Origin: a virus
Direction: 5' to 3' (one strand)
DNA length: 64,000 nucleotides
IMG/VR virus record: IMGVR_UViG_3300050821_006280
Span: 32,001-96,000 of that record
In this document: in pieces, positions 30,356-64,000 of the stretch
Layout: every line of letters begins with the position of its first letter
How positions within the stretch are numbered: the stretch's first letter is position 1
Notes under the pieces: model-generated
Databases searched by the model: none
Told to the model about the DNA's origin: nothing
Seen by the model: only the letters and a program-made list of their open reading frames with translations
Made by a program: the position numbers and the translations under genes

Positions 30356-31468
30356 TCAACCGACAAACTTAGATCGGATCTCGTCTAGATGATGGTCACT
30401 TAGCTGATCTGGATCGAGCCCATCAGGTGTCGGAAAAATCTGGGTGTTTATTCGTTTTCCTAACGAATCCGCGATCTGATTTGCGACCTTCCTGCCAGCT
30501 GCGTCTCCGTCGGGAATTATCACCAGACGATCAAACCATCGTACTATCTTCTCACGCTGGTACCTACCAAGGTCTGATCCGAGCATTCCGGTTACATTCT
30601 GTATCCCTCGGTCATCGAGCCAAATCACATCGAACATCCCCTCCACCAAAAACACTGTTCCACGACCTGAGCCATCATACGTGAGATGGTCCTCACCGAA
30701 GAGATACACCTCCTTCTTGAAGCCGGTAGCGTGCATCCATGGCGGTGGCTCCCAGTTATCAAGGGAACACGGCAGAAATCGTCCGCCAATATTCACCAGC
30801 CTCCCGTTACGATCATACTGCGGGATCGCTATGCGTTTAGCGACTGGATGCCAACCAAGCTTCCATTTCTGTATCGCAGCGAGAGAGAGATTTCGGCCCT
30901 TCTCCAAATATAGAAGAGGGTCCACTCCAGTTGCTTCGACCCAGCTACGATCAACGAGCATCGCACGCATATCATCCATGGCTTTGACATGCGTATCTGG
31001 TAAGCTCGGCAATGCATCAGCTACTGAAAGAACGTCACCGTAGTCGCGCCCCTGCGTGTAGAGCTTTGAAATGCTATCATTCGGATCTGGCATCGCGTAG
31101 ATACCGGATCCGTGTTTCAAACGTTCCAGCTGTGGAAGTGGATTGCGCTGGTCCCCGTCCTGAAGTTCATTGATGAGACGATCAATCTTATCTTTCGATT
31201 TCCTTTCAGTGTGCTGTCGTTTGATTCGATAAAGCAGGTCTTTCATCGTCCCGCGGAACATGCATGTTCCCGACAGGCACTTGCATTTGCTCTCATCGTT
31301 ATCGACGGCAAATACAGCGAACGACGGCCTCTTGTCCCGCCCCATCTTATGAGTCCATGGTGCCAAAGGACAAGACGAACGAACGATCTGCCCCGTTGCC
31401 GTGGCTGTCGTGGTGATCCGATCCACATGCAGAGCACGTAGAATTCGTTCGATTTTATCAGCCTTCAC
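30356..31468 (-). CDS. DNA primase (Zn finger + TOPRIM)
   Basis: CPLAPWTH, FLVEGMFD, PDGDAAG, DPD. Confidence 0.88.
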   Translation of the reverse strand: MKADKIERILRALHVDRITTTATATGQIVRSSCPLAPWTHKMGRDKRPSFAVFAVDNDESKCKCLSGTCMFRGTMKDLLYRIKRQHTERKSKDKIDRLINELQDGDQRNPLPQLERLKHGSGIYAMPDPNDSISKLYTQGRDYGDVLSVADALPSLPDTHVKAMDDMRAMLVDRSWVEATGVDPLLYLEKGRNLSLAAIQKWKLGWHPVAKRIAIPQYDRNGRLVNIGGRFLPCSLDNWEPPPWMHATGFKKEVYLFGEDHLTYDGSGRGTVFLVEGMFDVIWLDDRGIQNVTGMLGSDLGRYQREKIVRWFDRLVIIPDGDAAGRKVANQIADSLGKRINTQIFPTPDGLDPDQLSDHHLDEIRSKFVG

Positions 31469-31476
31469 CGACGATC

Positions 31477-31505
31477 AGTGTCGCGTTCGTCGACGAGATT
31501 GTCTA
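31477..31505 (-). promoter_or_regulatory. Promoter TAGACA(ATC)-N17-GACACT
   Basis: Recurrent motif; overlaps the upstream TAG stop. Confidence 0.5.
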
Positions 31506-31922
31506 CTTCTTAGAAGGTGATTGTGGCTGCGGCGCGGCTGGATTGATCCCCGCTCGTTCTTGATCTTGACTGTCCTTGGCGTTGGCTGGCTTTGGTGGCT
31601 GCCGTCCACCAGGCCCATCCAGCTCATAAAGCTTGGGCTCGATCATTTTGAACAAGCGCTCAAACTGGAGATCTTTATTCGAGCCCTGAAAGCCTTCACG
31701 AATATGCTGCTGGTTCCGGGTCCAGCCTTTGCCAGTAAGCCTGATACCTTCAAGAACCTCTTGCCCGGCGGCCGGATAGAGGTATCCCTGCTTACCCAGC
31801 TGAGCACGAGCAATTTTCATTGCCCGGACTACCCCGTCGGCCCCACCGCCGGTGACACCTTTGTTGAAGATCGCTACGACGCAATGCCGAAAGAGAGGAG
31901 GGATGTCACGCCAGCCCGGCAT
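31503..31922 (-). CDS. Hypothetical protein
   Basis: ORF; start uncertain (31922 or 32000). Confidence 0.55.
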   Translation of the reverse strand: MPGWRDIPPLFRHCVVAIFNKGVTGGGADGVVRAMKIARAQLGKQGYLYPAAGQEVLEGIRLTGKGWTRNQQHIREGFQGSNKDLQFERLFKMIEPKLYELDGPGGRQPPKPANAKDSQDQERAGINPAAPQPQSPSKK

Positions 31923-31947
31923 GACTCGATCGTAGCACGAGTAACAG

Positions 31948-32346
31948 CTAGCTGGCCGCGGAGGCGCTCTTTTCTTTCTTCGGGTTCGCCTTCTTGGCAT
32001 TGGCCTTCTTCGTGCTCTCCTTCTTCACACCGGGGTTCCACTTGCCACCCGGCTGTCTCGCGCGATCCCGCAAGACCAACTTCTGCTCGTGGGTATAGGA
32101 CCCGTCGTGAGCCGCGCAGCACATGCCATAGCGAGGAGCCCCAGGCTCCTTGCAGTCCGGCGCAATGCACGGCTTGCGCGGCCTCGGCTTCCGGGCCAAC
32201 GGGACGCTGCCCACGCCCTGGGCGAGCCTGGAGAGGCGCTTCTGCACCTCCACAGCGACCACCGAGTCCACGACTTCCGTGAACATCTTGGCCACGCTGT
32301 CCGCGAGCTGCTTGGCTGCCTGCTTCCGATCCATCTCGTCCTCCAT
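31948..32346 (-). CDS. Small basic C-C-C-H zinc-finger protein, possibly nucleoid-associated
   Basis: N-terminal helix, CIAPDC...YGMCCAAH, Lys/Ala tail; own promoter; GC-rich codons. Confidence 0.6.
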   Translation of the reverse strand: MEDEMDRKQAAKQLADSVAKMFTEVVDSVVAVEVQKRLSRLAQGVGSVPLARKPRPRKPCIAPDCKEPGAPRYGMCCAAHDGSYTHEQKLVLRDRARQPGGKWNPGVKKESTKKANAKKANPKKEKSASAAS

Positions 32347-60596: not shown

Positions 60597-61013
60597 ATGA
60601 AAAACGATCCAAAAGCCAAAGGGGAGCGATCGGAGGCTATGGTTCTAGCGGCACTTCTGCGAAGTGGCAAGTCCGTTCTGCGACCGTTCGGTGATAACGA
60701 GCGATACGATCTAGTCATTGACGACGGCGAAAAATTCTCCAGAGTTCAATGCAAAACAGCACGTCGGGTTGGAAACGTCCTTAAATTCGACACGTGTTCA
60801 TCGTATTCGCACCGCGGTGGGAAGAAAAAAGACTACCGCGGCCAGGTTGAGTTCTTTGGCATCTACAGTCCAGATGTCGATCGTGTATTCCTTGTTCCAG
60901 TCAGTCATGTTGGTACCACGAGCGCATCGCTTAGACTTACTCCGACTGTTAATGGCCAGCATGTCAACGTTAGGCTTGCTAGCGATTATGAATTGTCTTT
61001 CATTCCAGCGTAA
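60597..61013 (+). mobile_element. Free-standing PD-(D/E)XK homing endonuclease gene inserted into tRNA-Asn
   Basis: PKAKGERSEAMV...PFGDNERYDLVID...RVQCKT...YRGQVEFFGIY; last codons and stop form the 5' end of tRNA-Asn. Confidence 0.82.
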
Positions 61014-61076
61014 CTCAGTTGGCAGAGTGCCTCACTGTTAATGAGGAGGTCACAGGTTCGAGTCCTGTCGCTGGAG
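61004..61076 (+). tRNA. trnN: tRNA-Asn(GTT)
   Basis: CCTCA-CTGTTAA-TGAGG, G73. Confidence 0.9.
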
Positions 61077-61078
61077 CT

Positions 61079-62904: not shown

Positions 62905-63129
62905 ATGACGACCCGAACGACCAAAGAAATGGCCGAGGAAGTCCTTGAATCGTTGAAGTCTGCTCACGAGGACAAGCCTTGGTTCAAAAAGGCAGTACTC
63001 GAAACGAGTGACTTGGGCTATGGCGTTGACCTTTGGGTTGATCGCGAGAAGTTCAGGGCTCGGACCGACAAGTTCATGCCGCCCGGTGCCATCAATCATG
63101 TCGTTGTATGCGTAATGGTGCAGGGCTAA
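62905..63129 (+). CDS. Hypothetical protein
   Basis: AGGAGG RBS; 74 aa. Confidence 0.65.
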   Translation: MTTRTTKEMAEEVLESLKSAHEDKPWFKKAVLETSDLGYGVDLWVDREKFRARTDKFMPPGAINHVVVCVMVQG

Positions 63130-63133
63130 TCGC

Positions 63134-63209
63134 GCCCGTGTAGCTCAGCCTGGACAGAGCACCGGTTTACGAAGCCGGGTTTGCGGGGGTTCAAATCCCT
63201 CCTCGGGCA
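63134..63209 (+). tRNA. trnR: tRNA-Arg(ACG)
   Basis: CCGGT-TTACGAA-GCCGG. Confidence 0.88.
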
Positions 63210-63350
63210 CTTCGCCTCTAGCAATTTGAATGACAGTAGATCAGGATTGGTGTCGTGCACCGGAGTGCTGGACCCGTAATGCGCGTTGGTGGCCACCGAC
63301 GAGTCAAGCCAGCCGGGGATTGATCACGCCCGTTATCACAGTGATCATTT

Positions 63351-63425
63351 GGGCTGGTAGCTCAACGGGAGAGCAGCGGCTTTGCAAGCCGAAGGTTGTG
63401 GGTTCGATCCCCATCCGGTCCACCA
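63351..63425 (+). tRNA. trnA: tRNA-Ala(TGC)
   Basis: G3-U70 pair, TTTGCAA loop, CCA. Confidence 0.9.
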
Positions 63426-63435
63426 CGAGGTCTAG

Positions 63436-63702
63436 ATGTTCGAGATGATCATCGATGGCGTGTATTGTATCTCGGGGCGAGGAATTGTTGTAACAGGCCA
63501 CCCGAACCGAGAATCAATCCGTGTTGGAGAATCCGTCGAAATTTGGAATCCAGATGGATCTGCACTCGACACGGTAATCACGGGGGTGGAGATGGTTTCC
63601 CCTCGTCGGCCGAATGACAATATCGGTCTTCTTCTGCGAACGACAGAAACCTTGAAAACCAAGGACAACATCCACCCCGGCGCAGTCATGCGGCGCAAGT
63701 AA
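63436..63702 (+). CDS. Stand-alone EF-Tu domain II-like protein
   Basis: IDGVYCISGRGIVVTG...IRVGESVEI...TVITGVEM...DNIGLLLR matches the EF-Tu domain II pattern; GAGG RBS. Confidence 0.85.
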   Translation: MFEMIIDGVYCISGRGIVVTGHPNRESIRVGESVEIWNPDGSALDTVITGVEMVSPRRPNDNIGLLLRTTETLKTKDNIHPGAVMRRK

Positions 63703-63710
63703 GGTGACCC

Positions 63711-63893
63711 ATGGAACGCAAGCTGACGATGATCCAAGTCGACCTGGAGCAGTGCCGTTGTGGTGTCGGTGCCCATGGTGATGGCAATGGACCAACCGTG
63801 TTCATCACCATGTTCCACAACGAGTTCGACGAACCGATCGTTGACGACGAAGCACGCCGTCAGATCAAGACAATCTTCCCGCAATTCGAGTAG
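63711..63893 (+). CDS. Hypothetical protein
   Basis: AAGG RBS; 60 aa. Confidence 0.5.
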   Translation: MERKLTMIQVDLEQCRCGVGAHGDGNGPTVFITMFHNEFDEPIVDDEARRQIKTIFPQFE

Positions 63894-63900
63894 TTCAAAT

Positions 63901-63970
63901 GGGCAGCGGTCTGGGACCAAGCGAGTCTCCAAAACTTGCTAGCGCATGGGTTCGATCCCCCGGCGGCCCG
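63901..63970 (+). tRNA. Atypical tRNA-Trp(CCA) with a reduced D-arm and 6-bp anticodon stem
   Basis: GCGAGT-CTCCAAA-ACTTGC; D-arm GGT-CTGGG-ACC; G73. Confidence 0.65.
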
Positions 63971-64000
63971 CTAATGGATGGAGCAGTAGATGAGCGATCC

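Follow-up and report, generated by a model that had tools for sequence, protein, structure and literature searches.

A free-standing EF-Tu domain II barrel encoded in the tRNA array of a T4-like phage, a possible docking-surface mimic

The stretch of DNA analysed here (the window, 64,000 nucleotides) runs from base 32001 to base 96000 of an IMG/VR virus record, a linear sequence of 109,558 bp with a GC content of 54% and an estimated completeness of 68% (CheckV). Judged from its gene content, the source is a large, uncultured, distant T4-type myovirus. Its portal protein matches phrog_213, and shares 34-36% identity with the portals of Flavobacterium phage immuto and Microcystis phage Mel-JY01, and ~27% with those of T4-like cyanophages. 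A gp23-type major head protein, a prohead protease, a tail sheath protein, a UvsX-like recombinase, and a DnaB-like helicase are also encoded. Residues 81-119 of the head protein also match, in their own right, phrog_12830, a short PHROG annotated as "major head protein", and this segment probably lies at about the same place as the EF-Tu-binding Gol stretch of T4 gp23. A giant ORF of the window codes for 3144 amino acids (26% Gly, 17% Ala, 11% Thr, and 10% Ser), contains long GGAGG/TGG-type repeats, and has an unusual GC2 of 0.69; its product is probably a fibre-like structural protein. No relatives of the source phage were found in IMG/VR when the 603-aa gene adjoining the tRNA array was used as a query.

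Between 88.5 and 108.5 kb of the contig lies an array of 43 tRNA genes and a tmRNA gene, every one on the + strand, with small ORFs and homing-type endonuclease genes scattered between the tRNA genes (Table 1). A PD-(D/E)XK endonuclease ORF overlaps a tRNA-Asn gene with its 3' end, and two HNH endonuclease genes are located farther along the array. A gene for a PTH2-type peptidyl-tRNA hydrolase, an enzyme of the archaeal/eukaryotic type, sits within the array and crosses the edge of the window; it is followed on its 3' side by a 63-aa HTH-like ORF and by tRNA-Ile(TAT). The one-piece tmRNA, whose predicted tag is ANDNMYPAASLRAAA, is located ~10 kb beyond the PTH2 gene. A gene for SmpB was not found across the 109.6-kb contig.

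Table 1. Features at and around the mini-gene. Positions are those of the window unless a prefix or the word contig indicates otherwise.
Feature	Position	Strand	Evidence and remarks
CDS, solo EF-Tu domain II protein, 88 aa (mini-gene)	63436-63702, stop included	+	ORF list, EF-Tu homology, fold, relatives
Shine-Dalgarno-like GAGG	63427..63430	+	Read from sequence; 5 nt 5' of ATG
tRNA-Ala(TGC) with encoded CCA	63351..63425	+	ARAGORN; Rfam tRNA, 63.6 bits; directly 5' of mini-gene
ORF, 60 aa, acidic	63711..63893	+	Co-oriented; starts 8 nt past mini-gene stop
ORF, 166 aa, antisense	63432-63932	-	Rejected as a true gene; shadow of two + strand genes
PTH2-type peptidyl-tRNA hydrolase, 133 aa	starts 63990..64000, to 64391 equivalent (L001:2055-2456; contig 95990-96391)	+	PF01981, E 6.5e-28, 97.7 bits; begins 290 nt 3' of mini-gene
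PD-(D/E)XK endonuclease ORF	60597-61013	+	PF11645, E 8e-34
tRNA-Asn	61004-61077	+	Overlapped by the 3' end of the PD-(D/E)XK ORF
tmRNA, one-piece, phage-encoded	L004:10238-10637 (contig 106238-106635)	+	RF00023, 112 bits
HNH endonuclease gene	L004:7750-8394		
HNH endonuclease gene	L004:11698-12282		
Giant ORF, 3144 aa	43895-53329	+	
T4 gp23-type major head protein	L005:10565-12082 (contig 30565-32082)	-	phrog_138, E 2e-70

The subject of this study is a small gene within the array, referred to below as the mini-gene, whose ATG is 10 nt past the encoded CCA of tRNA-Ala(TGC). An earlier, sequence-only reading of the window had described it as an 88-aa ORF with its own ribosome-binding site and stop codon, and both signals are indeed present. 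The GC content at the three codon positions (GC1/2/3 = 0.57/0.43/0.57) follows the same pattern as that of the long genes of the source phage. The mini-gene and the tRNA array probably share a transcript. The 60-aa ORF that follows it is strongly coding-like (GC1/2/3 = 0.62/0.33/0.68), and its product has no match in Pfam, PHROG, or PADLOC.

The product of the mini-gene is related to EF-Tu. A phmmer search of the PDB returned ~59 EF-Tu sequences with E-values of 1e-8 to 4e-5, in which residues 2-72 of the query were aligned with EF-Tu residues 211-284, while the next family, SelB, was matched with an E-value of 0.13. The NCBIfam models of EF-Tu were matched with an E-value of 3e-12, residues 2-85 corresponding to positions 213-295 of 396; in the case of TIGR00485, the score of 43.3 bits, compared to the curated cut-off of 522 bits, reflects a local match to positions 211-293 only. 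The EF-Tu domain II motifs quoted in the sequence-only reading are present. A structure predicted by AlphaFold2 had a pLDDT of 74 when a single sequence was used, and a pLDDT of 91.9 and a pTM of 0.82 when an alignment of 48 sequences was supplied. Residues 1-88 of the model were superposed by VIA-align on residues 209-295 of E. coli EF-Tu (Z 13.2, rmsd 1.5 Å over 79 residues), and the top 50 structural matches to the model were all EF-Tu or EF-1alpha. Since the entire model superposes on this segment, the 88-aa protein begins and stops at the borders of domain II, and the end-to-end match to domain II claimed earlier thus holds at the levels of both profile and modelled fold.

One check proposed earlier gave a different result. 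The Pfam model of the domain, PF03144 (GTP_EFTU_D2), does not detect the 88-aa protein at E <= 1, nor anything on the contig at E <= 10; the gathering threshold of this model is 30.3 bits, and one relative of the protein, P0152 (see below), scores 15 bits. The homology to domain II and the translation-factor β-barrel fold are nevertheless established by the phmmer, NCBIfam, and modelling results. The protein belongs to a divergent branch that is too far removed for the PF03144 model. The absence of the rest of EF-Tu, which had also been claimed, was confirmed: neither the G domain (PF00009) nor domain III (PF03143) was matched in six frames of the 109.6-kb contig, and the ORF ends at the domain II/III border. 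A tblastn search of the contig with Salmonella EF-Tu detected residues 211-280 only, at the mini-gene ORF, i.e., no relics of a tuf gene.

Relatives of the 88-aa protein were sought with HMMER among 1.84 billion cluster representatives, in an exhaustive scan without a length filter. Three short proteins outranked every true EF-Tu. These are P0002 (88 aa, 58% identity, E 1.5e-22, encoded on a 14.7-kb contig), P0003 (89 aa, 46% identity), and P0004, a 60-aa call whose cluster contains a full form of 90 aa, P0152, encoded on a 39-kb contig. A profile search added P0161 (91 aa). The resulting five family members (88-91 aa) all start with MF[EK]M, share a common end point, and are 45-58% identical to each other. 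They group together, with an SH-aLRT support of 87, in a maximum-likelihood tree that was built quickly from 152 domain II segments and is poorly resolved elsewhere. Two marks of the family are without counterpart in EF-Tu, an invariant WNPDG[ST] turn and a four-residue xSETL insert after the LLR motif. In addition, the loop corresponding to EF-Tu residues 261-264 is four residues shorter in the family and contains two invariant prolines, with the exception of P0161.

The family is small. When IMG/VR was scanned for patterns derived from the protein and from the family alignment, no other members were revealed, and a pattern scan of 185,579 GTDB species genomes of prokaryotes did not detect the family. 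Megablast of positions 63000-64000 against GenBank phages yielded no match. A tblastn search of GenBank phages with the 88-aa protein returned 15 records, all with less than 60% identity and without a phage relative among them: the matches are partial and fall in or next to tuf genes or in unannotated stretches, and several of the records are bacterial. The 88-aa protein has no match in PHROGs or PADLOC, neither the mini-protein family nor the tested canonical solo domain II proteins are represented by a PHROG family, and only full-length GTPases of giant viruses were returned from the BFVD structures. The family has so far been seen only on metagenomic, virus-like contigs.

One relative could be studied in its genomic context. 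It is encoded at positions 8069-8338 of L002, which covers 18.3 kb of a 23-kb metagenome contig of soil type and represents a phage-like replication module, with genes for a DNA helicase, a family A polymerase (PolA), an exonuclease subunit, and a methyltransferase. The start of this copy overlaps the stop of the upstream gene via a TGATG junction, which suggests that the two are translationally coupled. There are no tRNA genes in the 18 kb, no PTH2 gene near the copy, no matches to PF00009 or PF03143, and no further gene detectably in common with the source phage. Since the two share only the mini-gene, members of the family occur in no fewer than two phages that are unrelated, and their gene neighbourhoods differ. 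The occurrence of related copies in an unrelated phage makes the mini-gene a horizontally mobile phage accessory gene. In a survey of the kind proposed earlier, which covered this one relative, synteny with a tRNA array is thus not conserved, and the suggested link of the protein to the array, or to the unusual tRNA-like RNAs nearby, is weakened both by this result and by the loss of most aminoacyl-CCA contacts described below. A conserved pairing with the downstream 60-aa ORF or with PTH2 was rejected on the same grounds, neither being present near the L002 copy.

A comparison of the mini-gene with the DNA of this single relative (L002:8069-8338) gave a saturated pS of 0.78 and a pN of 0.34, a divergence at which a formal dN/dS is not computable. 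Because pN is well below the saturated pS, the mini-gene is under purifying selection. The sequence-only reading had named variable ends and relaxed selection as the signs of a decaying tuf fragment; the fixed ends in five lineages and the low pN point the other way. With its own translation signals, its fixed ends, and no tuf relics around it, the stand-alone domain II protein proposed earlier stands, and we consider it very probable that the mini-gene is a real, selected gene.

To evaluate the aminoacyl-tRNA acceptor-end pocket, the family was aligned to Salmonella EF-Tu, whose numbering is the same as that of the E. coli protein, and the contacts E215, D216, F218, T228, E259, R262, N273, and R288, together with His66 of domain I, were inspected. 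The five family members agree without exception at R223, G224, E259, L278, and R279, and they all have an aromatic residue (Y/F) at position 218. Position 215 reads D/E/E/T/E across the members, while D216 reads G/E/S/R/D, T228 reads T/T/A/V/T, N273 reads N/S/I/Q/P, and R288 reads P/A/G/I/R; R262 is deleted in four of the five. Thus, the family has kept the GRG loop, E259, and the LLR motif, and has lost most of the canonical aminoacyl-tRNA contacts (D216, T228, R262, N273, and R288), all five of which are near-invariant in full-length EF-Tu and in most other short domain II matches. His66, the residue that closes the amino-acid pocket of EF-Tu, is without a counterpart. A pocket of the EF-Tu type is therefore absent from the family. 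The predicted isoelectric points of the members, 5.0-7.9, are acidic to neutral, unlike those of small RNA-binding proteins. The lost contacts and the pI values argue against binding of the aminoacyl-CCA end in the manner of EF-Tu, and also against a generic basic RNA binder. Another mode of acceptor-end binding may be compatible with the family residues.

The interpretation that we favour, with a probability of roughly 0.4 for the statement as a whole, is that the mini-gene is a mobile accessory gene for a remodelled, free-standing domain II barrel that acts as a docking-surface mimic. The mimic mechanism itself is tentative, and we would rate it at somewhat below an even chance. The 88-aa protein would not carry aminoacyl-tRNA as EF-Tu does, since it has lost most of the contacts and is without the G domain, which completes the pocket. 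It would mimic the docking surface of EF-Tu domain II, and would occupy a partner that normally engages this surface. The candidate partner is a host immune sensor or toxin that employs EF-Tu domains II/III as a cofactor (Avs7-type, Gol/Lit-type, or CdiA-type) or, alternatively, the site on the 30S shoulder where domain II lands; in either case, its occupation would tilt the infected cell to the advantage of the phage. We favour the mimic because the canonical contacts to tRNA are eroded in a protein that is not basic, because the gene moves between unrelated phages as an accessory gene, and also because immune and toxin proteins are documented to dock on domain II, together with domain III. 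In the case of the Avs7 capsid sensor, EF-Tu serves as a structural cofactor that is recruited via its domains II and III, and the authors of that work recall that the T4 capsid protein binds EF-Tu (PMC13581612). The source phage is itself T4-like by its portal and gp23-type capsid protein. The decoy role put forward in the sequence-only reading is plausible, and gains context from the Avs7 work.

Several considerations weigh against the mimic. EF-Tu is among the most abundant proteins of the cell, so a competitive decoy would need a much higher affinity or very high expression. The identity of the family to EF-Tu domain II is ~40-48% (compared to 45-58% internally), which means that the EF-Tu surface is not closely preserved. 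Domain III is part of every published domain II-binding interface that we found, and the mini-protein is without it. Finally, the setting among 43 tRNA genes, a tmRNA, and PTH2 suits a tRNA-directed role instead. EF-Tu domain I is where both Lit and the type IV Thoeris caspase cut, the latter after R45 and R59 and in a promiscuous manner (bioRxiv 10.1101/2024.10.24.620036). For such systems, docking is thus the only role in which domain II could be of importance. The type IV Thoeris caspase was rejected as a domain II-directed target because of its domain I sites and its promiscuity.

A stronger version of the docking-surface mimic would make the family a new counter-defence class, i.e., high-affinity domain II mimics that block immune systems recruiting or monitoring EF-Tu via domains II/III. 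We regard this version as unlikely. Two routes can be envisaged. In one, the mimic could take the place of EF-Tu on Avs7-type capsid sensors; in the other, its target could be the Gol-like EF-Tu-binding stretch of the phage's own T4-type capsid protein, whose capture would leave Lit-type suicide proteases untriggered.

The best-surviving alternative, which we also consider improbable, is that the barrel binds tRNA acceptor ends. According to this explanation, it would grip tRNAs or the tmRNA of the phage by their 3' CCA end, whether aminoacyl or peptidyl, and would protect or channel these RNAs as part of a phage translation toolkit that includes the tRNA array, the tmRNA, and PTH2. The location of the mini-gene, immediately past a tRNA-Ala gene and shortly before PTH2 in a phage that also encodes a tmRNA, speaks for such a role, as do the invariance of E259, which contacts the tRNA end, and the retention of an aromatic residue at position 218. 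There are also precedents for isolated barrels. The C2 domain of IF2, a related β-barrel and, like the mini-protein, an autonomous module, can on its own hold the tRNA acceptor end (PMC4611024); unlike the mini-protein, it is part of a large factor, and it showed no detectable sequence similarity to the 88-aa protein and was absent from the top structural matches. Pbp11 of Thermococcales (PDB 7ANU), the only characterised solo domain II analogue that we found in the literature, is an archaeal domain II-like protein that binds tRNA and the proteasome activator PAN, and its tRNA binding requires a flexible N-terminal tail (PMC9540759). Pbp11 is likewise a free-standing EF-Tu domain II barrel of ~11 kDa, and the equivalent of E259 is kept in it. 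However, it also keeps the equivalent of R288, which the phage protein does not, and the phage protein is without the tail, since it begins with MFEM at the first β-strand (E3-12 in the model). The NCBIfam model of Pbp11, NF041207, was not matched at E <= 1 by the 88-aa protein or its four relatives. Together with the loss of D216, T228, R262, N273, and R288, the absence of His66 of domain I, the pI values, and the existence of the L002 relative with neither tRNA genes within 18 kb nor PTH2, these differences argue against acceptor-end binding.

Less probable still is a modulator of the ribosome. The 30S shoulder (16S h5/h15 and S12) is the landing site of domain II of all translational GTPases, and the barrel could dock there during infection, tuning or blocking factor binding. 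The GRG turn (EF-Tu 222-224) is the best-kept loop of the family; in EF-Tu on the ribosome, this turn lies opposite 16S h5, and the G222D defect maps to it. The conservation of GRG is ambiguous, though, because it is also a structural turn of the barrel, and P0152 has D at position 222. Moreover, weak binding is expected from a lone domain, and the phage itself needs translation.

The notion that the mini-gene is a decaying or recently captured fragment of tuf without a function of its own is already largely refuted, and we consider it very improbable. The gene does have a host-type origin, and the region is full of mobile endonuclease genes. On the other hand, the borders coincide exactly with those of the domain, the start and the stop are common to five lineages that are only 45-58% identical, the gene has its own ribosome-binding site and its L002 copy is translationally coupled, and the mini-gene is present in two unrelated phages; the low pN at a saturated pS, the fixed ends, and the absence of neighbouring tuf relics in the contig led us to reject it. 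A split EF-Tu, for which the phage would have to encode the G domain and domain III at other loci, is the least credible of all, since, even though the contig is an estimated 68% complete, PF00009 and PF03143 are absent from its 109.6 kb as well as from the 18 kb around the L002 copy, and the G-domain-facing residues that form the aminoacyl pocket are not kept.

Relative to EF-Tu domain II (TIGR00485; TufA ~209-295; PF03144), to which it is 40-45% identical, the mini-protein thus retains the six-stranded barrel, the GRG turn, and the GVEM (E259) and GLLLR motifs; it differs in the missing G domain and domain III, in falling below the Pfam domain threshold, and in the shortened 261-264 loop, the xSETL insert, the new WNPDG[ST] turn, and the lost aminoacyl-tRNA contacts.

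EF-Tu is central to translation, and phage-host conflict returns to it again and again, as exemplified by Lit/Gol, the type IV Thoeris caspase, the Avs7 cofactor, the CdiA and Tse6 toxins, and Qbeta replicase. A phage family that has copied and remodelled domain II only is a ready-made probe of the role of this surface during infection. No such family was found in the catalogued phage resources (PHROGs, BFVD, and GenBank phages), and since its members escape the Pfam model, routine annotation will call them hypothetical. If the anti-defence mimic is true, it would represent a new principle, the copying of a host cofactor domain; if tRNA-end binding is true, tRNA-rich phages would possess, in this family, a minimal factor of a new kind for the handling of tRNA.

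There are precedents for solo domain II proteins, and the 88-aa family is a divergent, phage-borne variant of a little-studied group. Bacteria encode uncharacterised proteins of ~90-140 aa that are annotated as "EF-Tu/IF-2/RF-3 family GTPase" or "EF-Tu domain 2 domain-containing protein" (ESM Atlas and the matches obtained here); they too consist of solo or repeated domain II, and often begin at the same residue (P0033, P0037, and P0042). The phage family falls within this group in a tree whose resolution is weak. Unlike the phage family, the bacterial proteins pass the PF03144 threshold and keep EF-Tu-like contact residues; they are cellular, and many contain N-terminal extensions, lipoprotein-like leaders, or tandem repeats. 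Two canonical representatives, P0033 and P0025, match the Pbp11 model NF041207 weakly, below its cut-off. No function has been described for the bacterial solo domain II proteins in searchable papers. The architectures are varied: P0005 contains three tandem copies of domain II behind an unrelated N-terminal region, P0006 contains three copies behind a membrane or signal segment, and P0019 contains one copy behind a lipoprotein-like leader. These three proteins point to a wider, unstudied cellular radiation of domain II-only proteins.
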